Source: a virus. Taken from it: DNA of 64,000 nt. Under the pieces are notes generated by a model. It did not search any database, was not told the origin of the DNA, and worked only from the letters and a program-made list of their open reading frames with translations. Position numbers and translations under genes: made by a program. Shown piece by piece: positions 3,289 through 58,047 of this stretch. The DNA lies in IMG/VR virus record IMGVR_UViG_3300050821_010639, positions 88,047 to 152,046 of that record; one strand, given 5' to 3'. Position 1 is the stretch's first letter, and each line of letters starts with the position of its first letter.

Positions 3289-3440
3289 TACGGGCCTGCC
3301 AGGGCGGCACGCAGCTTGCCCAGCTGCGCCAGCGCCTCGTCAACGTCGGCCAGCGCGTCCGCCCGTGCGGAAAGCTCCCGGGTGGCGAGCATCCGGTAGG
3401 CGGCCTGCGCGTGCGCGTACACCCCTGACCAGGCTGTCAT
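3288..3440 (-). CDS. Small hypothetical protein
   Basis: MTAWSG start; TAATG coupling to the next gene. Confidence 0.5.
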   Translation of the reverse strand: MTAWSGVYAHAQAAYRMLATRELSARADALADVDEALAQLGKLRAALAGP

Positions 3441-3498
3441 CGCGTCGCGGGCCTCGTCTCCGGACAGCGGGCCGTCCGGGCCGACGGTCCGGGGCCGG

Positions 3499-4107
3499 CT
3501 AACCACCGTGCTTCGCCTGGTTGTGCTCCCGGGCCCGATTGATAACGACGTCCAGACTCGGGTGGTAACCGATCTCGAAGTAAGCCCGGAGGTTCGCTGC
3601 TGCGCACTTGTGGCAGTGCAGTGCGGTCGTGCCCCGGTCAGGAATGACGGTGAACTGGCCGCTGAACTCCGACAGCGGCAGCCCTGCGGGCTCGCGGATG
3701 TCATCGACGCCGTGCCAGTACATCCGCTCCGCCACCCGCCAAAGCAGGTCATACAGGTTGTCACCACTGATGGTGACGTTCTCAGCCGTCGTGAGCGGCC
3801 GGTCCTCGTCGTCGTACTCGGTGTCACGGATGCGCGGGTCCACCTCGTTGTCGACCAGCCAGCGCTTCAGCCGCGCCATGGTCGACTCGCCTTGCGGGTA
3901 GTCGCGGTCATCAGCCGCGCGGGCCTGCTCGCGCTCGCTCGGCCGGGTGTCCTGGTCAAGCAGGAACGGCACGCCGCGCGTCATGTAGTGGCGGAAAAAC
4001 TGGTCCCAGCCGTCGTGCGCAGTGTCGCTCCACACCTCCCGGCCGTCGACCTCAACGGCGATGCCGTCGGTCCCCTCGTCCCAGGTGATGAACTTGATCG
4101 TCTTCAA
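3499..4107 (-). CDS. Hypothetical protein
   Basis: Coupled ORF, acidic, CHKC motif. Confidence 0.7.
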   Translation of the reverse strand: MKTIKFITWDEGTDGIAVEVDGREVWSDTAHDGWDQFFRHYMTRGVPFLLDQDTRPSEREQARAADDRDYPQGESTMARLKRWLVDNEVDPRIRDTEYDDEDRPLTTAENVTISGDNLYDLLWRVAERMYWHGVDDIREPAGLPLSEFSGQFTVIPDRGTTALHCHKCAAANLRAYFEIGYHPSLDVVINRAREHNQAKHGG

Positions 4108-4313
4108 CGTGCCCGCCCCTCGTCGCCTGTGCCTGCTTGCGGGTCAGCTAGCCCCGCAGCCGCGGGGCTGCGCCCCCAGGCCTCCCGGGCCGCGTCGTTC
4201 CCGTAAATGACGTGAAACACCTGGTCCTTGCGCCGTCGCCGTTCGGTCTTGTCGGGAGCGGCACTGATGTACGCCGCTGCCTTGCGGTACGCGGCGTCAC
4301 TCGCCTCGCTCAT
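4104..4313 (-). CDS. Hypothetical protein
   Basis: RBS-like AAGGG; coupled. Confidence 0.6.
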   Translation of the reverse strand: MSEASDAAYRKAAAYISAAPDKTERRRRKDQVFHVIYGNDAAREAWGRSPAAAGLADPQAGTGDEGRAR

Positions 4314-4325
4314 GAGCCCGCCCTT

Positions 4326-4526
4326 CTAGTTGCGCGCGCAGTCCGGCCAGCCGGACGCGCCTACCCCTGTTACGTGCTGGCCCGCCGGGCAGAACACGGT
4401 GGGCGGGGTGAAGATCGCGGGCACGGCGTCGTGGTGCCTCAGGTGCCCGGCCACGGTAGCGGCGATCATGAAAAAGGCGACCCCCGCGACCACGGTCACC
4501 AGGGCAATCACCACAGCCGACCTCAT
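4326..4526 (-). CDS. Small membrane or secreted protein
   Basis: N-terminal hydrophobic helix. Confidence 0.65.
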   Translation of the reverse strand: MRSAVVIALVTVVAGVAFFMIAATVAGHLRHHDAVPAIFTPPTVFCPAGQHVTGVGASGWPDCARN

Positions 4527-4684
4527 GACTCGCCTTCAATCACCAGGTCGTTGTCGGTCTGGTCGGCGCCGAAGCGCGGGATGCCCGGCTCAGCGCCGGA
4601 CCCGATGATGACGCCGTTGGCCGCGCGCCGCTCGCCAGGCCGCAGTTCGATGTTCAGGGTCTTGTCTCCCGGTGCCTGTGTCAC
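4523..4684 (-). CDS. 53-aa leaderless protein (not in the ORF track)
   Basis: GTG 6 nt after -10 TAAGCT; MTQAPGDKTLNIELRPG...; ATGA coupling to the next gene. Confidence 0.6.
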   Translation of the reverse strand: MTQAPGDKTLNIELRPGERRAANGVIIGSGAEPGIPRFGADQTDNDLVIEGES

Positions 4685-4917
4685 GGCCACAGCTTACGCA
4701 GTGTCTTGACTAGAGTCAAGTAATCAGACATTTTCGGCGGGCCGCCGACCGTCCGCAGCCAGAGGAAGACGCCAGCCGCGCCGTTCGCGAACCCGAAGGC
4801 CACAATGCCGAACGGGAGCCACCAGCCCTCCAGGCCGGTCCAGAGCATGAGCCAGAAGCCGACGCTCATGCTGAAAAAGCACATGATGACCCAGGGGTGG
4901 CGCTGCACGGGGTTCAT
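4681..4917 (-). CDS. Small two-TM membrane protein
   Basis: Two hydrophobic segments. Confidence 0.65.
   Translation of the reverse strand: MNPVQRHPWVIMCFFSMSVGFWLMLWTGLEGWWLPFGIVAFGFANGAAGVFLWLRTVGGPPKMSDYLTLVKTLRKLWP
4691..4720 (-). promoter_or_regulatory. SigmaA-type promoter plus operator
   Basis: TTGACT-N17-TAAGCT; CTTGACTAGAGTCAAG at 4705-4720. Confidence 0.8.
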
Positions 4918-5378
4918 CCGAGAGTCCCCTCACCGCTAGCGAAGATGCCGTCCGCGGCCTCGCGCACGGTGGACAGCGTGAAGTCGTGCGCCGGGAGCAC
5001 GCCGGTCAGGAACCGCGCTGCCACGTCAAGCGGGTCAGGCTCCGCCGGCGGGTCCGGCAGCTCGGGCGCGTCCAGCTCGGGCCACCACTCGGCCACGCTG
5101 CTGCCGTCCTCCCACCAGGTGACCTCTTCCGAGCGCTGCACCTCCACGGAGGCGCCGAGCCACGTCAGCATCAGAGCCCGGCTGTACGCGCCCGACGCTG
5201 ACAGGTACAGGTGGTTGCGCGGCCAGCGGAACCCCCGCTTGCGCAGCGCGTTGCGCCGCTTGCGGTCCTTGACCGCGGCGAGCACCTGGGGCCAGGCCTC
5301 CGGTACCCACCCGGGCTCACCTGACCCGGGCGGGTAGAGGACGTTCAGCCGGTAGACGTGGACAGGGCGCTCAGGCAT
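4914..5378 (-). CDS. Hypothetical protein
   Basis: Coupled ORF. Confidence 0.65.
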   Translation of the reverse strand: MPERPVHVYRLNVLYPPGSGEPGWVPEAWPQVLAAVKDRKRRNALRKRGFRWPRNHLYLSASGAYSRALMLTWLGASVEVQRSEEVTWWEDGSSVAEWWPELDAPELPDPPAEPDPLDVAARFLTGVLPAHDFTLSTVREAADGIFASGEGTLG

Positions 5379-5613
5379 CGTCCGCACCCGCCAGCAGCTC
5401 AGGCTCCAGCGACCAGAACAGGACGGTGACCGGCTCGCCGGGGGCGATGCCCAGGTGCTGCTGGACTACGGCCAGGGCCGACTTGAAGGCTGAGGCGCGC
5501 GTCTTCGCCCGGCCAGCCTGCTCAGCGGTCATGGTGCCCTCAACCGTCTGCGCAGTGAGTGTGCCGAAGCCCAGCTTGTTCCACTGCACGGTCATGACCC
5601 AGAACCAGTTCAC
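5371..5613 (-). CDS. Hypothetical protein
   Basis: GTGA coupling. Confidence 0.65.
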   Translation of the reverse strand: MNWFWVMTVQWNKLGFGTLTAQTVEGTMTAEQAGRAKTRASAFKSALAVVQQHLGIAPGEPVTVLFWSLEPELLAGADDA

Positions 5614-6302
5614 CGGTCCGCGCCCCCGTCGGTGATGGCGCGGGTGATCGCGTCCGGCTCAAGGCCGGCCCGCTCGGCCATCCGGGTAACCATGGCCTCA
5701 AGGTCGTTGCGGGACTGCTCCACCACGGTCTCGGCGTGCTCGTCCAGCTTCCTGGTCGCGAACTCCACGTTGGGCACGGCGTTGGCGATGGCGGCCCGCA
5801 AGTCGGACAGCCGGGCCTTCCGCTCTGCGGCCGGAGCCGGGGGCTTGGCGTTCAGCGCAGCCTCGTAAGCAGCCTCAGCAGTCTGGATCTTGGCAAACGC
5901 GTCGTGCGCTGCAGCCCGCACCTCGTCGTGGGTGAGCGAGAACCGGGGAGCGGGGCGGAGGCCAGGCCGGTCGCCCGGCTCCTGCGTGCCGGTCGCGGTC
6001 CACTCGATCGTGCAGGGAACGCCGTCGCCCTGGCCGGTACTGGCCACGAACGAGGCGAACTGCGCCATCGACAGGCTGATTTCGCAGACCATCCGCTCCT
6101 GGTACACGCGGTCAGTGTGCAGGTCGCGCTTGCGGGTAGCCTCGTGGACCGTGACCCGCATGTACTCCGGGTGCCGGACATCGGACTGGAACAGCACCGC
6201 ACCCGGGGTAGAGCTGATCCGGTGAAGGCTGACCAGCCCGAACGCCGGGTGGGTTTCGTCCCCGTTCTCGCCGGTCGTGGAGTCCTCGTACTGCTTAGGC
6301 AT
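5610..6302 (-). CDS. Phage hypothetical protein (HPAFG...LFQSD..H motif)
   Basis: RBS GAGG; motif familiar from phage/prophage proteins. Confidence 0.75.
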   Translation of the reverse strand: MPKQYEDSTTGENGDETHPAFGLVSLHRISSTPGAVLFQSDVRHPEYMRVTVHEATRKRDLHTDRVYQERMVCEISLSMAQFASFVASTGQGDGVPCTIEWTATGTQEPGDRPGLRPAPRFSLTHDEVRAAAHDAFAKIQTAEAAYEAALNAKPPAPAAERKARLSDLRAAIANAVPNVEFATRKLDEHAETVVEQSRNDLEAMVTRMAERAGLEPDAITRAITDGGADR

Positions 6303-6813
6303 TTCCCTCTCCTCTCTTAGTCAGCGGGTACTCGCGGCGGTAGCCGAGCAGCGCCTCCAGCGGGTAGCGCGCGCCGCGTGCCTTGCGCGCCGCGGTCAGC
6401 GCCTCCTGTGCCGCGGCCACCCGGCGCTGAGCGTCAGCGAGGTCCGCCGCCGCCTCGTCGCGCGCATGCTCAGCAGCCACCAGGCCGGTCACGTCCGCCT
6501 CTTCCTCGATCCTGGCCACCAGGGCCAGGCCCTCGTCCGTCAGCCCGTAGTACGAGCGGGTGTGCAGCGTCCGCTTGCTGGCCAGGCGGCGCTTGTGGAG
6601 CCCGCGCGCGGTCCTGTCCAGGTCGGCGATGCCGCGCAGGTTGCCGACCTCGCCGCCCAGCATCAGGCCGTCGGACACCAGGTCGGTGATGGTGAACATC
6701 GTGTGGTGCCCGCTCGGGCACGCGGCGGTCGGCTCGCGCCGGCGCGCGGTCGCGTCGCGCAGCCCCACGAGAACGACGATGGCGCTCTCGCTCAGGGTCT
6801 CGATCTCTGCCAT
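6295..6813 (-). CDS. Hypothetical protein, possibly winged helix plus coiled coil
   Basis: RGLHKRRLASK...YYGLTDEG wing-like motif; first gene after a promoter. Confidence 0.6.
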   Translation of the reverse strand: MAEIETLSESAIVVLVGLRDATARRREPTAACPSGHHTMFTITDLVSDGLMLGGEVGNLRGIADLDRTARGLHKRRLASKRTLHTRSYYGLTDEGLALVARIEEEADVTGLVAAEHARDEAAADLADAQRRVAAAQEALTAARKARGARYPLEALLGYRREYPLTKRGEGNA

Positions 6814-6851
6814 CGGGTGCCTGCCCTCTGCTCGGAAGTGCTTACGACACC

Positions 6852-6881
6852 AGGCTACCGGATGACTTGACTTGAGTCAAG
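6852..6881 (-). promoter_or_regulatory. SigmaA-type promoter plus operator
   Basis: TTGACT-N17-TAGCCT; CTTGACTTGAGTCAAG at 6866-6881. Confidence 0.8.
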
Positions 6882-6899
6882 AGAGTGAGGATATTCCGC

Positions 6900-7220
6900 T
6901 CACGGGCGGCACATGCCCGCGTAGTCGCAGGGCTCGCCCTCGAAGCAGCCGCCAGGACCCGGGCACCTGCCCTCGTTGGCCGAGTAGCCCGGCGGGGTGA
7001 CCGGCACCCACGGGTCTAGCCTGGCGTCGGCGCGGGCGCACCCGCCGCGCTCGATGTACTGCCGCCAGCCCTCCTCGCTGCCGTGGCAGAGCATGCTCGC
7101 GGTGACCTTGACCATTTCGAGCACGGCCAGGGCAAAGGTGTCAGCTGCCTGCTCCCTCGGCAAGCCGATGTGCCCGATGCCCTCGACCCGGACGTACAGG
7201 ACGGGAGTGAACTCAGCCAT
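6900..7220 (-). CDS. Hypothetical Cys-rich protein
   Basis: ORF in operon context. Confidence 0.6.
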   Translation of the reverse strand: MAEFTPVLYVRVEGIGHIGLPREQAADTFALAVLEMVKVTASMLCHGSEEGWRQYIERGGCARADARLDPWVPVTPPGYSANEGRCPGPGGCFEGEPCDYAGMCRP

Positions 7221-7222
7221 CG

Positions 7223-7585
7223 TCAGCAGTGCGGGCAGTCGTTGGCGTCACCGGAAACCGGAAGGCTGGCTACCGGGCGCTCGCGCTGCTGCCAGGCCGG
7301 GTAGCCCTCCAGGGGCTCGCCCGCCTCGAACCGCTCGGCGTAGAGCTTGGCTGACTCGGCGAGCGCCGCCAGCTCGGGCTTCCCGCCAGGGCGGCCGGGG
7401 CCGCGGCCGAGCGGAAAGGCGATGGCGCTCTCCGCTGCCTCGCGAGCGATCACAGCCGTCAGGTTCACGGCAGCGGCACTGATCGAGAAGCGGCACAGCC
7501 GGACCTCCCGCTCTCCGGTGAGGACCAGGTAACCATGCCTGCTCCCGTAGGCGAACGCGCAAGTCTCGCCGTGTATCCACTCCAT
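7223..7585 (-). CDS. Hypothetical protein
   Basis: Start MEWIH after GGGGGGA. Confidence 0.6.
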   Translation of the reverse strand: MEWIHGETCAFAYGSRHGYLVLTGEREVRLCRFSISAAAVNLTAVIAREAAESAIAFPLGRGPGRPGGKPELAALAESAKLYAERFEAGEPLEGYPAWQQRERPVASLPVSGDANDCPHC

Positions 7586-7637
7586 CAGGTCCCCCCCAGT
7601 CCGAGCATTTCCGGCCGATGCCCCAGGGCAAGCCACG

Positions 7638-7940
7638 TCAGTCCTCCCTGGCGTACTCGGCCACCCGGCCAGCAGGTGACCCGAGCCAGGGCTGCGCCTG
7701 GGGCGGGGCCGGGCGCTCCCGGCCGCCGGTGAGCCAGCCGTGCCATAGCAGGGTGCCGTCGTCCTCGAAAACCACGGCGTAGTCGTCCGTGGAGATGTCG
7801 CTCCGGTCGGTGTCGGTGTAGTCGGTGATGACGCCGGCGGTGTCCCCGCCGGCGTCCAGGGCTGCGCGGATGGCCGGCTCCTGGTACTCCTCGTCAGCGT
7901 CGATCCGCCCTTCGCCGACCTTGAAAACCTTGATCTTCAC
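7638..7940 (-). CDS. Hypothetical protein
   Basis: TAGTG coupling. Confidence 0.65.
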   Translation of the reverse strand: MKIKVFKVGEGRIDADEEYQEPAIRAALDAGGDTAGVITDYTDTDRSDISTDDYAVVFEDDGTLLWHGWLTGGRERPAPPQAQPWLGSPAGRVAEYARED

Positions 7941-8719
7941 TACTCGGGCTCCCTTCCGAAGAACGCGGCGAGGCTGGCCCTGGCCGTCTCTACCGAGCGC
8001 AGGTCCAGGTGCGAGCGGAGGTTGGCGGCGGCACCAGCCAGCCCGGAAAGGGCCACCGGGTCAGTCGAGCCAGTGGCCCACGCTACGACCACGGTGAGGT
8101 CGTGCACAGGGTCGTAGACCTTGCGCGGCGTCTCGGTGTAGCGGTCCACGAGCGTGACCCAGGACGCGATGTCGCCGACGTTGAACTGCTGGCCGGGGAT
8201 GTCCGTCCGGCGCGCGCTCTCGCGGAACTCCGTTATCACGTCCTCGGAAATTCCTGCCGCGCGCATGCCCTGCTCGGCGCGGGCCCGGAGCGTGACGGTG
8301 TTGGCGTCAGTACCGCAGGCCGCGCCGCCAACGTCCGCAGCGTGCACCAGCAGGCCGACTTCGACCTCAGGGAAACGCGGCGCGTCCACCACGCCGGCGC
8401 GCTGCATGACCGACCACGCGCGCCCGGGGGTCAGCTTCCGCTTCAGCAGGATGATGACGTGCGCCACGAACACGGGCGCGTAGTTCACGCCATCGGGCAG
8501 CTGGTCGCCGAACCGCTCGAAGAACGGCTCAGTCTGGTCAAGGAACATGTCGTGGTCAACGGTCAGTTCGAGCACGTCGGCCACGTCCGCGCCGTTCAGC
8601 CGCGGGTAGCTCCGCGCGACCCTGCCCAGGAACAGCACCCGCTCGGCCTCGGTCAGCGAGTGCGCGACCGCCAGGAGCGCCGCCTCGCGCTCCGCGTCCT
8701 GCATCTGGTCTGGTGTCAT
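7940..8719 (-). CDS. Hypothetical protein
   Basis: RBS GAAGGG; first gene after a promoter. Confidence 0.7.
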   Translation of the reverse strand: MTPDQMQDAEREAALLAVAHSLTEAERVLFLGRVARSYPRLNGADVADVLELTVDHDMFLDQTEPFFERFGDQLPDGVNYAPVFVAHVIILLKRKLTPGRAWSVMQRAGVVDAPRFPEVEVGLLVHAADVGGAACGTDANTVTLRARAEQGMRAAGISEDVITEFRESARRTDIPGQQFNVGDIASWVTLVDRYTETPRKVYDPVHDLTVVVAWATGSTDPVALSGLAGAAANLRSHLDLRSVETARASLAAFFGREPE

Positions 8720-29097: not shown

Positions 29098-29961
29098 TCA
29101 GACGTACGCGTCCCCCCAGGCGAAGAGCGCGGTACCCGCAGTGACTGAGATCGAGTTGGCCCCCGGCAGCAAAGTCATCCACATCCGGCTGCCGATGTGG
29201 CCCAGGCCGCCGACCACGTTGTTGCCCACGGCGTCGAGCGCGGTGTAGCGCAGCACGTCCACCGTGACCGGCCAGGACTGGACGCCCGCGCCCGTGTGAG
29301 AGAAGGCCACGCCGGCGGTGTTGTTGGTGACCGTACAGGCCTGGGAGACCGCGACGGTAAAAGAGTTGATCGCGGAGGCGAACCCCTCGCCCACCACGCC
29401 CTCGCCGAGCGCGGTAATCGTGCCGCCGCCCGTGCCCACCACCTGCGACCGCTGAGCGGAGTAAAAGTAAGGGTCGCTGAGCAGCAGGTCCACGCTGAAA
29501 GCCGCGTTGGTCCGGCTGTTCATCGTCGGGTCCATGCTGCCGGCGATCTCGGCCATCGCCGTGGAGGTGACCATGGTCGGCGAGCCGCCCTGGGTCAGCC
29601 ACCAGTTGCGCTGCAGCTGGCCTTGCACGCTGCCCTGCGCCCCGCGGGTGAAGAACAGCTGGCGGAGCATCTGGAAGTTGTCGTTGAACGCGCGGCGCGG
29701 GTCGCCCGCCGGGTACGGCTGGCTCGCCGACATCTGGCTGTCGGTCCACATGGTCAGCGTGATGGTGCGCTCGTCCAGGTACTTGCCCCGGAACAGCTGG
29801 CCGGAGCGGTAGGGCACCTCGTAGTCCTGGCCCCGGTTGGTGGGGACGCCGAAGCGGGAGCCGCCGAAAGTGGCCACGTTGTAGTAGCTGGACTGAAGCG
29901 GAATACCGTTCCAGTACCACATTTCCGCTGGCAGGTAAGCAGCTACCGGGGCAGCGACCAT
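29098..29961 (-). CDS. Distal tail (Dit-like) protein
   Basis: Directly after the tape measure; ERTITL, F.VDL...DPYFY, LLPGANSI. Confidence 0.85.
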   Translation of the reverse strand: MVAAPVAAYLPAEMWYWNGIPLQSSYYNVATFGGSRFGVPTNRGQDYEVPYRSGQLFRGKYLDERTITLTMWTDSQMSASQPYPAGDPRRAFNDNFQMLRQLFFTRGAQGSVQGQLQRNWWLTQGGSPTMVTSTAMAEIAGSMDPTMNSRTNAAFSVDLLLSDPYFYSAQRSQVVGTGGGTITALGEGVVGEGFASAINSFTVAVSQACTVTNNTAGVAFSHTGAGVQSWPVTVDVLRYTALDAVGNNVVGGLGHIGSRMWMTLLPGANSISVTAGTALFAWGDAYV

Positions 29962-32900
29962 AAGATCATGCCTCGCCCTCCGAGGAACGCAAGCCTGTTG
30001 GACGTCCGGGTAATCGAGTCCTCGGTAGCGGCAGGCCGCGGGTTGTTGATGGTCAGGGCGTCCACGTGCAGCCCCACCCGGGTGCTGGCCGCCCCGTCCG
30101 CCATGGTGCGCGGCATCTCCCTGGAGGCCGACGCCGACAGCTGGCGCGAGAGGGTAGCCGACATGCCGGGCACGAACAGGCTGGGCACCAGGCCGCCGGC
30201 CGCCATGCCGCCGCTGAACATCCCGGCCACGCCGGCCAGCCCCGGGACCTCGCCGCCGCCCGCCAGGCCGAAGCCCATGTTCCCGACCGCGGGCGCGGCC
30301 GGGCCGCCGACGATGAGCTTGTTCAGGTCGATGAGCGTGCCGCCGCCGGTCCCGCCCGGCCCGGAGGGGGCCCCTGGCGTGCCGGCCCCCCCTGTCCCGC
30401 CCCCGCTGCCACCGGAACCCGGAGCCGGGGTGAGCGTGGTGCCCCAGATGCCGTGCCACGCGTTGTAGGCGTCCACCACGTCTGCCTGGAACTTAGCCAG
30501 GTTCGACTGGATCGGGCTGTAGAGGGCCGGCTCCCTGGACTGGGCCAGCGTGGCCACGTCCATCGCCGCCTGCCAGCGGCGCACCGAGCTGTTGGCGGTC
30601 GACCACATCGCCGGGGTCAGCTCCTGCGGGTTCGTCTTCAGGTCGGTGAACAGCGGCGCGATGTAGCTGCCCGCCACCGACACCCGGTTCTCGATCGCCG
30701 CCCTCGTCGCCAGCCAGGACTTCCAGTCGGCGGCCGACACCCCGGCCGGCTGCCGGGTCCAGGCGTTCAGTGACTTCCACGGCTGCAGCGCGCCCTCCCA
30801 GTCCGGGTACAGCCGGGCCGCCTCGGCCTGGTAGGCGGCCACGTCGCCGGACGGGGCGGCTGACAGGCTCTGCCCGGGGGCCGGGGCGAGCATGTTCTGC
30901 ACGGCGGTCCACGCGTCGGTCAGCCGGCCGGTGGCCGGGGTGCTCCAGTGCGTGCCGAGCGTGGTCGACGCCATCGCCGCCGCGTTGAGCGCGGCGTTCG
31001 CCGGGGTGTTCTTCCACGCCGACGCGGAAGAGCCCAGTACGCCCTTGGCGTAGGCCGGCTCCACCAGCCGGGCCGCCGTGACAGGGTCCTGGGCCTGCGC
31101 CTGGGTGAGGCCCTTGTGCTTGGCCAGGCTGAGGAGCCACGCGCCGTACTCGCCGTAGGAGGGGGCCGACCCGGCCGCGTTCTGCGCGGTCAGCAGGTAC
31201 GAGCCGAGCGCCATCGCCTCGCGCGTGTCGGCGTTGGGGGTGGTCGCCAGGATGGCGGTCATCACCGGGCCGCCGCCCGCGTACCAGTGGTAGGCCTCCT
31301 CGTGCGCGAGCGCGCCTGCCGGGGTGCCGTAGCGCTGGGCCACGTAGTTGAGGAACGCGGTCACCTGGCCCGCAGCGGTACCCGCGTTCCCCCCGTACTG
31401 GGCGTACTCGCTAGGCCCGTCAATGAACTGGGCAATGCCGTAGGCGTCCGACGTGGGGTTCTGCGCGTTGAGGTTCCAGCCGGCCTCGTCCATCTCGACC
31501 GCGTTCAGGTCGTCCCACAGCGCCCCGGTCCAGCCGCGCGCGGCTGCCATCGCCTTGGCCAGGGCCTGCACCTGCCCCGCCGACCCGCCGACCGCGTTCG
31601 CTGCCGTGGCCCCCGCGGTCTTCGCGACCGACGCGGTGGCCGCCGCGGTCTGGGCGGTCATCCAGGTGGCGACGCCGTTGTGGATGTCCTGCAGCCAGGC
31701 GGCGCCCATGTCGCCCGGCGTGCCGAGCGCCTCCAGCGCCTTCTCGGCAGGCACCCCGGCGGCCGACCACATCGCGTTGAAGACGGCCTGCTCACCGAAC
31801 GAGGCCACGTCCTTGGCCGCGCCGGCGATGCCGTCCCAGGCAGCCGACGCCGCGCCCTTCACCCCGGTGACCGCGTCACCTAGCCAGTTGGTGATGTTCC
31901 CGATGACGCCGCCACTGGCGTACCGGCCGTGCCCGGTGCCCCGCTGGGAGGCCGCGTTGCCGCGCGAGCCCGAGCCCAGCCAGGTGTCCGCCTGGTTGAG
32001 CTGGTCCATCACGTCCGGGCCGTAGGCGGCCTGCAGCGCCATCCGGGCGGGCTTGCGGACCATGAACTCGCCGCCCACGGCGACGATGTGCGTGCCGTCC
32101 TCGTCGCCGGTGCCGGGCACCGAGCCGGACACCGCGTGCACCGGGCCGCCGCCGGCCAGCTTGGAGATGGTGCCGATGTGCACGCCGACGATCGACGTCA
32201 CCGAGTTGATCCACCCGATGACCGTGTTCAGCCCGTCGATGACGTGGTCAATCCCGCCCTTGAGGGAGTTCCACATGGCGTTCGGCAGGGTGGAGGTGAA
32301 GAAGTTCTCGATCGGGGTCAGCACGTCCCGGCTGAACGCCGACCAGGTGTTGGACCAGGCCCTGGTGGCCGCCGCCGTGAAGCTGTCCCACCACTTGGGC
32401 ACGTCGCCGGTGAAGAAGTTCTGCAGCGGGGCGAGCACCGTCTTGCTGAATCCGGACCAGACCGCGCTCCACGCCTTGGTGGCGTCCGTGGCCAGGCTGT
32501 TCCACCAGCTAGGGATGCTGCCGGTGAAGAACTTCTGCAGCGGGGCGAGCACCGTGGTGTCGAACGACTTGACGTTGGCGTTCCACAGGTTCACCCACCA
32601 GCGGCTGACGGAGTTGAACCAGCCGGGCACCGTGCCGGTGAAGAACTTGCCCAGCGGCTGCGCCACGTTGGCGTTGAACTGGGCGGCGGCAGGCCCGAAC
32701 CAGATGTGCCACAGCTGGACCGCCAGCGCGGCGATGGCCTGGAACGTGGTACCGAAAAACGCCTTCAGGGCATTGAAAACCTGGATGCCCCACGACTGGA
32801 TGTCAATCCAGGCCTGGTGCCAGTGGCCGGTCACCACGTCGAGCGCCACGGAGATGATCGCGACCACCGTGTCCCAGGTGATCTTGGCTATCGCGACCAC

Positions 32901-35900: not shown

Positions 35901-38769
35901 GTCACCGATGACGGCCAGGTCCTCGGCCACGTGCGTGAGGGCCGTGGCCTGGATGAACTTGGCGACGATGACGCCCAGGGAGTCGAACCCCTGGCCGATG
36001 AGCGCGAGGTCCCTGGCGCCGACCGCCAGGAAATTCTGCAGCCCGCCTCCGCCGCCTTGCAGGGCGACGACGACCTTGGCGGCGAACCTGTCCAGGTAAC
36101 TGCCGGTCTGGTTGATGAGCTGGCCGAGGACGCCGGTCTTGTTGCCCGCCGCGGTCAGGTAGTCACCGAGCAGCTCGTAGACCTGCGGGCGGACCGCGTT
36201 CTCCAGCTTCTGGAAGTTGCTGGTCAGCGGCGGGATCGTGGTGTTAAGGGCATTGCCGACCGTGCTCAGGCTCTGCCACTGCTGGAAGATCTCCTTGAAC
36301 GACTGGTAGCCGGCCGCGCCGAACGCGATGAGCCCGGCCCCTGCCGTGACCAGGGCGGGCACCCACAGGGCCAGCACCTCGACAACGCTGTCCAGCAGGA
36401 TGTGCCAGAGGGCTACCTGGCCGATCATGTGCGTGTCGCCCAGCAGGCCCGACCACAACTGGACCTGCGTCCGCAGCAGGCCGATGCGCCAGCCCATGTT
36501 GACGGCGGCGTCGCTGTCGGCCTTCATCGCGGCGGCGGCCTTGGCCGCCGGGTCGGCCAGCCCGCCGAGCCCGGCCTTGACGTCGTACAGGGCGCGGCCG
36601 GCATCGGTCGCGGACTGGTCCGCGTCGCGCATCGCCTGGGCGATCTGCTCCCACGCGCGCGACTCGTCCGGGTCGGGCACGTCACCGCCGGGGTCGCCCG
36701 GAGGCGGCCCCCCGCCACCGCCGCCGCCGGAGGCGCCGCCCATGCCGGCGGTGACGCGGTTCTCCGCCGCGCGTGCCTCTTCCAGCTCGCGGACCCAGCT
36801 GGCCAGCTCCGCCTTGGCCGCGTCGTCACCGAAGCTGGCGTAGAACTCGTACTTGCGCTGGACCGCCTCGATGAGCGCGCTCATCCACCGGGACAGCCCG
36901 CTCTCGGCGCCGGTGTCCTCGAAGTCGGCGCGGGTGCCCACCTCGCGCTCAATGTCCTGGATGTCGCGGCTGTAGTCGCGGACCTCCTCCGACGCGCCGC
37001 TGGAGTCAACCACCAGGATGGTGTCCACCTCGTGCGGGATGTCGCGCAGGCCCTCGTCCAGCCCCTCGGCTGCCATCCGGGCCTGCTCGACCTCCTCGAA
37101 GTCGACCCCGAGCCGGGCCTGCGCGTGCTCGTTCAGGTGCGCCAGCTCGCTGGCCAGCAGCTGGGCCTCGGTAACCCCCTGCACGAGGCTGCCGTCCTCG
37201 ATCTCCGGGCGGGCCGGGTGGTCGTCCAGCCACTCCATCTCAACGGCGATCTTGTCCAGCACCTGCTCGGCTGCCGTGCCGCCCTGGACAGCTACCTTCT
37301 CAGTGGCCGTGCCGCCCTGCATGTACTTGCTCAGGCCGGACCACAGCTCCTCTTCCTCCGCCGGGCGGGCGACGACCTGCATGGGCGCGGGCACCGGGTA
37401 GCCGCGCGGGGCGTCGGAGATGACCCCCTCGCGCAGCGCCCCCGCGACGTCCTGCAGCCCGTAGAGGTCGGCGAGGTTCTGGTTGCGCTGCCCGGGAGTG
37501 ACAGGAGCTGCCCGCTTGCCCCGGCCGCCGCGCTGCGGGACGAACCGGGCGCCGGCCTCCGACAGCAGCTGCTCGGCCGCGGCGAGCCGCCCCAGGCCCT
37601 GCTCCAGCGCGCGGGCGTCAACCGCGGCGAGCGCGAGCGAGTCCTGGAACTTGGCGATGGCGTCGGCGGAGACCGCGGTCTTGTCATTCAGCAGCGCCAT
37701 CGAGCCCGCGAGCGCGCCGGTGCCGTCGGACGCGGCGGACAGCGCCTCTCCCGACAGGGGGCCTGGTCCTGACCCGGTGACGGCCAGCGGGGCGCGCAGC
37801 GCCTCCGGGCGGGCTCCGGCGACCGCCTGGGACAGCGCGCGGTTGACCGCCGCGTAGTCGATGTCCGGCCGCACGGAGACCGGCACCGTGGCGTGCTGCG
37901 GCGTGAGCGGGACACCGCCGAGGCGCGAGGCCACCGACACGATGTCCACCCGCTCGGAGCCCGGCAGCCCGAGTAGCGCCGCCCGGTAGGCGGCGAGCTG
38001 CGACATCGCCTGGCCGTCATCGAGCACCGCCTTGGTGACCACCGTGTCCGGCAGCCCGACCAGCGCCGCGCTGTAGGCGTTGAGCGCGCCCAGCCCCTCG
38101 CCGAGGCTGCCCGCCGTGGCGTGCGTGCCCTGCAGCGCGTTGGCGTGCGCGAGCAGCAGCTGGGTCTCGGCGCTGATGGCCGCGCTGCGGTCGCGGATAG
38201 CCGCCGACAGCGAGGCGGTCTGCATGGTCTCGCGCTGCAGGAAGCCCAGGTACTGGTCAGCGGTCTGGTAGCCGGCGAAGTGCGCCCGGTTCTCCAGCAG
38301 GGCGAGGTTGTACATCTGCTGGCGGTAGGACATGGCCTGCTGGACCGAGGAGAAGCCGAGCCAGTGCTGCCGGTTGAGCAGGGTGGTGTAGTTCAGCTCC
38401 TGACTCAGGTCACTCAGGTGCTGGGTCATGTCGTTCCGGCCGCCGTACAGCAGCTGGGTGTTAGTCGACTTGGCCGACTGGGCCAGCTGGGACAGGGCCG
38501 TCGTCTGCTGCTGGATGGCCTGGACGTCCCTGGCCCGCGCGGCAGCCGCCTGGGTAGAGCCCGTCACCTCGGCCGCGGTCTCCGCCTTGACCGCGTCCGA
38601 CATGCCCTGCAGCGCGGCCTTGGCCTCGGCCGCATCCCGCATCAGGCTGCCGAAGTCACCTGAATGTTAAACCGATCGCTTTGTAAATTACGTACCAAAG
38701 CGATCTAACCAATATTCTGGTCCCTCATAAGCCACAGCTGCGGCTCAGAGGCTCAGAATAAGGCGTCAT
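29943..38769 (-). CDS. Tape measure protein with C-terminal lytic transglycosylase-like domain; 5' end split by TTA inserts (contiguous ORF 38642-29943)
   Basis: ~2900 aa Ala/Gly-rich, Trp/Phe periodic repeats, EAGWNLNAQNPTSDAYGIAQF; follows the chaperone. Confidence 0.95.
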
Positions 38770-39489
38770 GAGCACCACCCCCTTCCGCATGAAGGGGCGC
38801 GAGCCCAGGTAATCAGGGAACCGCCAGGCCTGCCCGGTCTTTTCAGCCAGCCCGACCATCTGGTTGCAGGCATGGCACAACAGCCCGCGAATGCACTTCT
38901 TGCAGCAGTGCGTCTGCCCGGACTTCTTGGGCGGGCAGCAATTGTGGTCGTGGTCTACACAGAGGTACACGACACCCTTGCGAGTCTCCGGGCCGCCGTG
39001 AAGGGCGCACACGCCACCCTGCTGTGCTAGCAGCCAGGCGTACTCCTCCTGCGTGATGCCCATGCGCTTGAGCGCCCAGGCCCGGTACTCGCCGTTCCGC
39101 CGGCCTTTACGCGGCTCGCTCCAGCACTCGGTGCACCGCGACATACGCCCGCCTGGCTGTGTCGGCTTGCTCAGGTGGTACTGCTCCCAGGGCTTGTACT
39201 TGCCGCAGCTAGAGCACTCGCGCCCGTCAGGATCAATGCGGAACCCAGTGCCTCGATGACGCTCGGGGACATACGCGGGAGTTGGTCGTGCATAAGTCCC
39301 TGGCTTGCGCCGGGGAATGCCGAACTTGTCCAGCCGGTACCAGACGGCGGCCTGAGAGCAGCCGATCTCAGCAGCGATGTCCGGTGTAGACCTGGCCTGA
39401 CTGACGTACTGCTCGTGAAGCCAAGCCTTGTCGGCGAGCAGTGAGAGATTACGTTCCATGCTCTCTACTACGTGCAAAGCTCTAGCCAT
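38725..39489 (-). CDS. Endonuclease VII-like (HNH) homing-type endonuclease with N-terminal HTH
   Basis: GITQEEY..LL..QGGVCA...LCVDHDH.CC...IRGLLCHACN..VG; inserted between chaperone and tape measure. Confidence 0.9.
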   Translation of the reverse strand: MARALHVVESMERNLSLLADKAWLHEQYVSQARSTPDIAAEIGCSQAAVWYRLDKFGIPRRKPGTYARPTPAYVPERHRGTGFRIDPDGRECSSCGKYKPWEQYHLSKPTQPGGRMSRCTECWSEPRKGRRNGEYRAWALKRMGITQEEYAWLLAQQGGVCALHGGPETRKGVVYLCVDHDHNCCPPKKSGQTHCCKKCIRGLLCHACNQMVGLAEKTGQAWRFPDYLGSRPFMRKGVVLMTPYSEPLSRSCGL

Positions 39490-39492
39490 CTC

Positions 39493-40505
39493 TCACCCTC
39501 CCCTCCCCGGCATCGGCGGCGGACCTCCCATAAGGCTTAGGAAGGCTTCATAGCTTCCGGCCCCGTTGTCCGCCTCCACCCCGGCGTCAGGGTTGGCGGC
39601 TACCTTGCCGAAGCGCGGGTCGTCCTCCACCCGGTCAGCGACCTTGGGGCCGCGGATGCGGTCAAGCTCCTGCTCCTCGGGGCTCTTGCCGCCGAAGATG
39701 TCGATGGACTGTGCCATCTCAACCAGCGGGTTCCTGCCGCCGGTCTTCGACGTGTCCACCATCGCCTGCGCCCCGATGAACTGGCACACCATCTTCACCT
39801 GCCACTCAGCCAGCCTCAGCCGGGCCTTGTTCTCCCGGCCGCGCCGCGACTCCGCCGCCTCCAGGCACTGCCGGACCCGGCACAGCGGGAGGCCTAGGAC
39901 GTACTCGTCGGTCCACCCGTACTCGTGGCTGAGGACGTCGAACGCCGCCGCGAACGCGCCGGCGAGTTGAGGTCCCGCACCGTCGCCTCCGGCTCCGGCG
40001 GCTCCTTGTCCTGGCCCGTCTTGCGGAACAGGTCCAGGGTCCGCTGAAGCTTTTTTCCCAGGGCCTGCAGCTCCGGGGCCTCCCGGCGGATGATGTCCTC
40101 AATCAGGTCGAGGGTGTCGCCCAGCTCAGGGTTGTGCAGTTCCTCGTTGAACCGCGTCCACAGCGCCTGGTTGGCCTCGGTCTCCTGCTTGGTGAGCTGC
40201 GAGGCGGGCTTGTCCACGATGCCGGCTGGCCGGGTCATCGACGCCAGGAAGCCGATGGCCTCCTGCTCGGCGTCAGGAATCGACATGATGACCAGCATGA
40301 GCAGCTTCTGGCCGAACACCTCCGACCCGGCCGCGAAGTCGAGCCCGCTCTGGGCCAGCGCCGGGCCCGCCCCGTGGGTGAGCACGCGCAGCAGGCGGAA
40401 GAACTGGCGGGTCTGCATCCGCACCACTTCGACCTCGAAGCCGGTGGACAGCTTGCGGGCCTCAGGCTGCGGGTCGATGCGGTCAAGCTCGGAGTCGTCC
40501 GGCAT
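39493..40505 (-). CDS. Tail assembly chaperone G (40505-39894) and GT via a -1 frameshift at GGGAAAA (40059-40053)
   Basis: CTG GGA AAA AAG slippery site; the -1 frame is open to 39493 (AFDVLSHEYGWTDEYVLGLPL...). Confidence 0.9.
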
Positions 40506-57772: not shown

Positions 57773-57822
57773 GGGTTCCGCTGCAGCAGTCCGTGCAAAC
57801 TTCTACGGCAGGAGAACAGCAA

Positions 57823-58047
57823 GTGCAGACGGCAGGACATCAGGCCGGCCCGACCTGGGTCAAGAGTTCGCTGAGTTTCGCGAACGGCAACTGCGTTGAG
57901 GTAGCGAGCCTGTCCGGCGGCGAAGTTGGCGTCCGGAACAGCAGGGATGCTGCAGGCGCGGTTCTCCGCTTCACGCCAGACGAATGGCGCGCGTTCATCG
58001 GTGGCGTTCAGAGCGGCGAATTCGACAGGTTCGGCCAGCAGGGCTAA
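57823..58047 (+). CDS. DUF397 (BldB-like) protein
   Basis: WVKSSLS..NGNCVEVA...VGVRNSRD..G.VLRFTPDEWRAFI.GV..GEFD. Confidence 0.95.
   Translation: MQTAGHQAGPTWVKSSLSFANGNCVEVASLSGGEVGVRNSRDAAGAVLRFTPDEWRAFIGGVQSGEFDRFGQQG

Follow-up and report, generated by a model that had tools for sequence, protein, structure and literature searches.

The interrupted leader of the tape-measure gene

The stretch analysed here, the window, is the 64-kb right-hand part of a 152,046-bp virus record (IMG/VR record IMGVR_UViG_3300050821_010639; G+C content 70%) in which the structural genes of the phage are on the minus strand; our subject is the 5' end of its predicted tape-measure gene. Position, size and homologues identify the open reading frame (ORF) at 38642-29943 (minus strand; 2899 codons as annotated from an internal methionine, Met23 in the numbering used below) as the tape-measure gene, the homologues being 1931-2955 residues long and including some with lysozyme or SLT domains. 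No start codon is present between the upstream stop and ATG 38642. Immediately upstream of this ATG lies a leader in three pieces, which are in three different frames and lead into the annotated gene. Piece 1 (38735-38709) consists of a GTG start codon (38735-38733) and codons 2-9, the last being the take-off codon TGG (38711-38709), and matches the start of intact homologues in position and peptide. It is followed by insert 1 (38708-38695), 14 nucleotides (nt) predicted to remain untranslated, which opens with TTA (38708-38706) and closes with the landing TGG (38697-38695). Piece 2 (38694-38671) comprises codons 10-17 up to the take-off codon GGT (38673-38671) and is separated by insert 2 (38670-38658; 13 nt, likewise predicted to be untranslated, with TTA 38670-38668 first and the landing GGT 38660-38658 last) from piece 3 (38657-38643; codons 18-22), which is in frame with the annotated gene. 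The tape measure would accordingly start at GTG 38735, not at ATG 38642, and its product with the leader would have 2921 residues. An earlier note on this DNA had proposed three successive hops here; for the second and third of these, the TTA-led inserts and the identical codon pairs TGG/TGG and GGT/GGT are indeed present in the sequence, and their anatomy is that of UUA-triggered bypassing.

We compared the window with the DNA of 31 related loci from IMG/VR, JGI, ENA, Logan and NCBI assemblies, each leader being parsed against an intact one by dynamic programming that allows untranslated gaps. The relatives are contigs of ~125-153 kb from uncultured phages, most of them from soil; a cultured-phage collection, searched with both DNA and protein, gave no match to the leader region, and no relative of the phage was found among reference prokaryote genomes. 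At the protein level, a 22-residue extension equal to the peptide obtained by skipping both inserts stands at the N-terminus of 17 of 38 database homologues. The earlier note had named homologues starting at MRDAA without the leader segment as a finding that would tell against it; instead, these 17 carry the predicted leader, and the rejoined N-terminus agrees residue for residue with that of uninterrupted homologues. Gene callers have started 20 of the 38 homologues from the internal methionine at the position of ATG 38642; the programs thus truncate or split such genes, and annotations of high-GC phages miss the leaders.

The leader is intact in nine loci (eight distinct alleles), in which the flanks of the inserts are adjacent and both inserts of the window are absent. 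In 23 distinct alleles, the window and 22 relatives, it is interrupted by ~30 inserts located after codons 8, 9, 11, 14, 17 and 20. Insert lengths are 4, 7, 10, 11, 13, 14 and 16 nt, a multiple of three never being seen; TTA opens every one of them, and the rejoined leader peptide has the consensus length in every interrupted allele. At the codon of insert 1, six other loci carry inserts of 11-16 nt, and at that of insert 2, ten other loci carry inserts of 10-16 nt. Each insert that follows codon 8, 9, 17 or 20 closes with a triplet identical to the preceding codon in at least its first two bases, and in two loci in which residue 17 is Ala (L026 and L032) the take-off and landing codons have changed jointly from GGT/GGT to GCT/GCT. 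The start codon of the interrupted alleles is GTG in 10 and ATG in 13. L026 retains both inserts and has Lys in place of Met at the position of ATG 38642, so that the internal start is unavailable there.

The split pieces are under strong purifying selection. Across leader codons 2-22 of the interrupted alleles, the proportions of synonymous (pS) and nonsynonymous (pN) differences are 0.71 and 0.067, respectively, with a ratio of nonsynonymous to synonymous rates (dN/dS) of 0.03, these being pairwise statistics from related sequences, not independent counts; for the leader of intact alleles, dN/dS is 0.13. Within families that share their inserts, pN/pS is 0.067 at pS 0.54 (the seven alleles with the two-insert design of the window) and 0.063 (five alleles with a 4-nt insert after codon 14), indicating that the split state has persisted under selection and does not consist of recent breaks. 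Selection on the split pieces supports the view that the rejoined leader is real coding sequence. At third codon positions, the 22-codon leader has a G+C content of 0.52 in the window; the mean is 0.65 for interrupted alleles, intact ones reach 0.82, and the following 150 codons of the gene body have 0.95. The A/T-rich third positions may reflect slow translation, escape from a nuclease or foreign origin.

Insert 1 also contributes to an RNA hairpin (38705-38674, minus strand) with a 10-bp stem (38705-38696 paired with 38683-38674) and a 12-nt loop. The hairpin begins downstream of the UUA, with the landing codon and piece 2 enclosed in it; most of the length of insert 1 forms its 5' arm, and the last codons of piece 2 (38683-38674), just before the second take-off codon, form its 3' arm. 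Its fold energy is -27.6 kcal/mol (z -3.17), and none of 200 shuffled sequences folds as well, so that the 10-bp stem described in the earlier note, starting after the second TTA and holding the landing codon, is borne out by folding and is conserved in relatives. The complementarity of insert 1 to leader codons 14-16 holds in all seven alleles with two inserts, and where these codons change (Ile ATC to ATT, or Val GTA), insert 1 changes to match; RNAalifold recovers the core helix in seven of seven, with three pairs changed on both sides. A role of the hairpin as a terminator was considered and rejected, there being no terminator-like or promoter-like site in 38400-39700.

An RNA library (run X9) covers relatives only, as contigs, and may contain DNA, which makes it weak evidence. 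One of its contigs retains a 7-nt TTA insert after the Val11 codon GTT, with a loose end at window position 38657; this insert ends in GTC, which would serve as a synonymous landing codon; in the DNA loci L022, L028 and L039 the triplet there is GCC. Given its coverage, the library says nothing firm about transcription or the start of the mRNA.

The overlapping nuclease gene and the distribution of inserts

Upstream of the leader and overlapping the tape-measure start by 11 nt is an ORF of 254 codons (39489-38725, minus strand) that encodes a predicted homing-type nuclease. It matches the recombination endonuclease VII family PF02945 (E 1.4e-12; 47.8 bits against a gathering cutoff of 23.6), which places it in the family by the Pfam threshold, as well as phrog_2633 (E 2e-23) and, more generally, endonuclease VII families of PHROG; the activity and target of the product are predictions. 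The ORF ends with TTA (38730-38728) as its final sense codon and TGA (38727-38725) as its stop.

This gene bears directly on the first of the three hops that the earlier note had proposed, namely, from GGC over TTA in a frame opened by ATG 38769. The stretch assigned to the ribosome-binding site, ATG 38769 and the hop (38780-38721, minus strand) is the 3' end of the nuclease ORF: the ATG and its purine-rich GGGGGTGG lie within that ORF in the same frame, and GGC-TTA-TGA is its terminus. Moreover, GGC-TTA simply results when the conserved start codons GTG-GCT-TAY (NTG-GCT-TAY) are read in the -1 frame and is also present in intact alleles, and homologues begin Met/Val-Ala-Tyr-Glu-Gly at the position of GTG 38735. 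We therefore could not uphold this hop, which is also unnecessary because the homologous GTG start serves the tape-measure frame.

A separate observation concerns three relatives with a codon-14 insert (L008, L037 and L038). In these, a strong Shine-Dalgarno sequence and an ATG ~40 nt before the called tape-measure start open a short frame that reaches GAG-TTA, with a second Glu codon (GAG; GAA in L038) 7 nt further on, before the Gly5 codon. This GAG-TTA may be a further hop site with an alternative N-terminus or a by-product of overlapping codons.

The inserts are strongly associated with nuclease genes. An EndoVII or HNH gene, or a remnant thereof, lies directly upstream in at least 17 of the 23 interrupted alleles and in none of the eight intact ones. 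Two loci (L005 and L031) keep both inserts beside a nuclease remnant of 45-48 codons, and the ORFs that precede the leader in L028, L029 and L034 have no counterpart in Pfam or PHROGs and are not callable as nucleases. On a tree of the first 190 tape-measure residues, the state of the leader requires 20 changes versus 19.4 in shuffles and is thus as scattered as random labels would be. Near-identical tape-measure genes carry different leader states, with and without inserts, their DNA identity being 97-100% downstream of Met23 and collapsing within the leader. The insert type is tracked better by nuclease clades than by the tape-measure tree: one nuclease clade has the two-insert design in four of four alleles and another the codon-14 insert in three of four.

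Proposed translational bypassing and competing explanations

Taken together, the UUA-led inserts, the matching codons, the selection on the split pieces and the failure of simple frameshifting lead us to read the window as two tandem hops of the ribosome, from UGG to UGG over 14 nt and from GGU to GGU over 13 nt, a reading to which we assign a probability of roughly 0.7. The hop itself and its efficiency are what we infer from the sequences. Translation would proceed with peptidyl-tRNA on the take-off codon, Trp UGG (38711-38709) and later Gly GGU (38673-38671), when UUA, a codon that the phage nearly avoids and that its own tRNAs do not read, enters the A site. With the A site remaining empty, the peptidyl-tRNA would release and the mRNA slide by 14 nt at the first site and 13 nt at the second, until the tRNA pairs anew with a landing codon identical to the one it left (38697-38695, then 38660-38658). 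Decoding would restart at the next codon, yielding the same peptide as in uninterrupted relatives. At the second hop, the hairpin formed by insert 1 and the codons before the take-off may aid forward movement; by analogy with the pairing on the exit side proposed in the case of gene 60 (bioRxiv 10.1101/2024.12.09.627546), we conjecture that the helix refolds behind a ribosome leaving the second take-off codon.

The choice of codon is consistent with this scheme. TTA accounts for ~0.2% of trinucleotides in the genome and, in a crude ORF set of the phage, for 10 of ~34,000 codons (0.29 per 1000); that so rare a triplet opens both inserts of the window and ~30 in all is more than chance would produce. 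The phage carries a block of 35 tRNA genes (genome positions 3336-8466, outside the window), a nearly full set that includes Trp-CCA, Gly-GCC, Gly-UCC and three Leu anticodons, and none of these 35 genes has the anticodon UAA that reads UUA. A gene for a DUF397 protein (PF04149; window 57793-58047, plus strand; E 6.5e-20), a family that we take to be typical of actinomycetes, hints at a Streptomyces-like actinomycete host. We also scanned the whole genome for a codon followed by TTA, a short gap and a matching codon, with coding potential on both sides. TTA gave 8 hits and control triplets 1-12, with the second portal site (see below) being recovered. A further hit, at window 49255 (minus strand), was rejected, since its TTA is out of frame and the site is an ordinary junction at which the upstream gene ends in TAG and the next starts at GTG 49245. 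The scan is too crude for counting sites.

If the ribosome instead decoded UUA or shifted on it, part of the insert would be translated and the leader would gain 1-5 residues. Frameshifting of this kind, which is also weighed in PMC10732093, suits the fact that most insert lengths are 1 modulo 3, as for a +1 shift, and the 4-nt inserts of relatives are indistinguishable from +1 events by sequence. However, insert 1, at 14 nt, is 2 modulo 3, at insert 2 a plain +1 shift would run straight into TAA while the zero frame reaches TGA after four codons, and a slippery heptamer is absent. Frameshifting also leaves unexplained why the take-off codon matches the landing codon and why both have changed to GCT together, the leader has a constant length in all intact alleles, and the 15-nt insert of one portal relative is in frame and contains a stop codon; we consider frameshifting improbable. 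Somewhat different in kind is the proposal that the leader is a decaying remnant, with the protein starting at ATG 38642 and the inserts being nuclease scars in DNA that is no longer translated. The many homologues called from this methionine, its near invariance and an AGGTGA located 13 nt upstream of the ATG would all fit, but intact alleles, in which Met23 and GGTGAC are internal to the reading frame, conserve both just as well, and L026 lacks the ATG altogether. Furthermore, stops and random indels are absent from the pieces, which show dN/dS of 0.03 (pN/pS 0.06-0.07 at pS ~0.5 within insert families), and TTA opens every insert, most of which end in a matching codon. Purifying selection, the age of the split state and L026 jointly exclude a decayed leader as the principal explanation and call for recoding of some sort, so that we hold this proposal to be very unlikely.

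We attach the same slight weight to a scheme with three hops, in which translation starts at ATG 38769 behind GGGGGTGG, or reads on from the nuclease ORF, and passes from GGC over TTA to GGA before the other two hops. The outward form is indeed the same, a Gly codon, TTA and a Gly codon 10 nt further; the Shine-Dalgarno sequence, ATG and short frame are kept in L005 and L031 despite the decayed body of the nuclease, and GTG 38735 lacks its own Shine-Dalgarno sequence. Against this, the motif is forced by the -1 reading of conserved start codons and is carried by intact alleles as well, the hop would remove the conserved residues 2-4, the ATG is in frame within the nuclease ORF, and the layout is accounted for without a hop if ribosomes terminate at TGA 38727-38725 and re-initiate at the GTG in the overlap. 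Removal of the inserts from the RNA before translation, as tiny introns or by editing, seems less credible still. Its sole support is that the flanking direct repeats make excision boundaries ambiguous, and it leaves unexplained why TTA is universal in the frame of the upstream piece and why the repeats are phased with codons. A relative's contig in the RNA library that retains its TTA insert also argues against removal, though weakly, as the library may hold DNA, and we know of no excision of 4-16 nt of RNA in phages. Finally, beyond the metagenomic origin of the sequence nothing suggests errors of assembly or sequencing. A contig from an independent soil run of a different study covers 38548-39100 with zero differences, and structured inserts occur in 22 loci from all of the sources listed above; the chance of an artefact is negligible.

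Several points nevertheless weigh against two tandem hops, or loosen the form in which we propose them. Support for the hops in the tape measure comes wholly from comparison, and the selection statistics that form part of it share the dependence among sequences mentioned above. For the inserts after codons 11 and 14 in relatives, the landing codon matches the take-off codon at two of three positions, implying a rule looser than simple re-pairing. Structure around single inserts in relatives does not differ from that of shuffled sequences, so that the hairpin cannot be a general requirement. Given that GTG 38735 is devoid of its own Shine-Dalgarno sequence, initiation there would need coupling to the nuclease ORF, and since Met23 is conserved in almost all alleles, a shorter protein could be made in addition. 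That the host tRNA for UUA is limiting is an assumption, for which the hints are the codon usage of the phage and the DUF397 gene. As for the link with nucleases, two loci (L002 and L004) have one insert each and no nuclease nearby.

The portal gene, possible origin of the inserts and known recoding systems

The same device appears at the start of the portal gene of this phage and in the portal genes of relatives, in line with the shared mechanism that the earlier note had suggested. The Mu-type portal (61560-60211, minus strand) is preceded by a start region (61829-61651, minus strand) with two TTA-led inserts, one after ACC and one after GGC; for the first of these, a 7-nt hop suits the consensus length better than a 10-nt one. 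We parsed 42 relatives of the portal, most of which are intact, and four have TTA-led inserts at the same or other codons (portal loci with inserts are L051, L053, L054, L074 and L091). In L091, the insert is the 15-nt in-frame one with a stop codon, flanked by GGT/GGT. Directly before the portal lies an ORF of 224 codons (62510-61836, minus strand) without a match in Pfam or PHROGs. Homologues of this ORF are found in 6 of 55 portal loci, four of which carry inserts: three belong to the four relatives parsed with TTA inserts, the fourth is L091 with its 15-nt insert, and the remaining two of the six are insert-free. The 224-codon ORF may be an unrecognized homing nuclease.

As to the provenance of the inserts in the tape measure, we lean towards the view that they belong to, or are left by, the upstream homing-type nuclease cassette, that they disrupt the nuclease target within the conserved leader in the way that the 50-nt gap disrupts that of MobA in T4, and that they survive because they happen to be skippable. 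Near-identical genes with and without inserts, and inserts that travel with nucleases, fit an origin in selfish cassettes better than the regulatory switch on head and tail assembly envisaged in the earlier note, and a dedicated switch, though it may exist, is not needed to explain the data. More tentatively, with odds that we place a little short of even, UUA-led skippable inserts in high-GC soil actinophages might generally be the immunity half of homing-nuclease cassettes. EndoVII and HNH lineages would target the 5' leaders of essential structural genes (tape measure and portal), spread horizontally and leave behind an insert that blocks re-cleavage yet can be hopped because the host decodes UUA poorly, the hairpin of the two-insert design refolding behind the ribosome and driving the second hop.

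Programmed translational bypassing is among the rarest modes of gene reading, with T4 gene 60, the byp elements of yeast mitochondria and three terminase genes of Streptomyces phages and prophages as its established or proposed examples. The earlier note had likened the window to byps, which is a loose comparison; the terminase of the Streptomyces phage phiHau3 is the closer precedent. The byp elements of Magnusiomyces capitatus mitochondria, reportedly described by Lang et al. in 2014, are said to be 27-55 nt long, with conserved stem-loops and no nuclease partner. By this description they share with the inserts studied here a multitude of short, mobile-looking inserts, matching take-off and landing codons and an A site occupied by a codon that is unassigned or slow. 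They differ in being mitochondrial, longer and equipped with stem-loops of their own; no likeness in sequence or structure would be expected.

UUA-mediated bypassing has been proposed for the phiHau3 terminase and two prophages (Smith et al., as cited under ref. 45 in PMC10732093). The phiHau3 gene has two 10-nt UUA-led inserts and the two prophages have 7-nt inserts; a full-length product was obtained in Streptomyces (Antonov et al. 2023, PMC10732093), and the junction peptide was detected by mass spectrometry in E. coli after UUA had been changed to UAA (PMC10732093). In the same work, 3 of 100 surveyed terminase genes contained inserts. The window has the features of this type, namely, a frame-breaking insert absent from relatives, UUA at its opening and a landing codon at its 3' end. 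Also shared are the high-GC actinophage setting, two inserts in series in one gene, the shortness of the frame-breaking inserts (7-10 nt there), the position of UUA directly after the last conserved codon, the adjacency of the flanks in insert-free relatives, and the landing codon and local RNA structure that are invoked. By contrast, the inserts described here are found in the tape measure (and portal) of uncultured ~150-kb phages, measure 4-16 nt and occupy six positions within 22 codons in ~23 alleles. Both inserts of the window are in the 5' leader, with a conserved hairpin linking insert 1 to the second take-off codon. Their association with homing-type nucleases is strong, whereas the word 'homing' is absent from PMC10732093, and a role as a sensor of lysis or lysogeny is not indicated here.

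The nuclease link has its parallel in T4, in which the 50-nt bypass of gene 60 comes with the mobA cassette (Bonocora et al. 2011, as cited in bioRxiv 10.1101/2022.08.31.505936); according to the summary in the latter source, the insert blocks cutting by the linked nuclease and outlives it. In both systems, the insert adjoins a free-standing homing nuclease with an ORF that runs into the start of the next reading frame, it persists where that nuclease has decayed or given way to other families, close relatives exist with and without the element, and take-off and landing codons match. The inserts of the tape measure are likewise linked to a homing-type nuclease and inherited with it, and we infer by analogy that they may protect from its cleavage. 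By the same source, the gap of gene 60 measures 50 nt, its A site holds a stop codon, the take-off codon is part of a stem-loop and the nascent peptide provides a signal, as opposed to the 13-14-nt gaps in tandem and the rare sense codon UUA of the window, and the EndoVII/HNH nucleases are unrelated to MobA by any test made. Lacking a ~50-nt gap, a stop codon and a take-off stem-loop, the window is not of the T4 gene 60 type, though it would work alike. A further resemblance is to hungry-codon bypassing in E. coli reporters, which the refs 47-52 of PMC10732093 are cited for as low-level hops at slow codons. There too the A site is empty at a slow codon and the peptidyl-tRNA slides a few to tens of nt to reach a matching codon close by, but those are laboratory events of low efficiency, whereas the inserts considered here are fixed in an essential structural gene under selection.

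The type of decoding is already known from phiHau3, and the nuclease link has been published for T4 only; the novelty lies in the tape-measure leader as the site, in how dense and diverse the inserts are, in the hairpin with its covariation and in the selection statistics. If our reading is right, the tape-measure family adds another essential gene with bypassing, beside the portal of the same phage, and the ~30 natural inserts, with their joint codon changes and compensated hairpin, provide a series for testing requirements for gap length, landing match and structure. The link to nucleases mirrors the T4 mobA cassette in an unrelated world of phages and hosts, suggesting that selfish nucleases may give rise to recoding sites in this way more generally. 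Were the inserts indeed the immunity half of such cassettes, T4 gene 60 and phiHau3 would be joined under one evolutionary logic, with dozens of natural variants from which to derive the rules of hopping.

Among the other structural genes on the minus strand are those for a head decoration protein and, upstream of the tape measure, a tail-assembly chaperone (40505-39894, minus strand); in the listed gene order, a 101-codon ORF separates the latter from the endonuclease VII-family gene. At the opposite end of the tape-measure ORF, six codons before its end, there is an in-frame TTA (29961-29963, minus strand) that overlaps an ATG.

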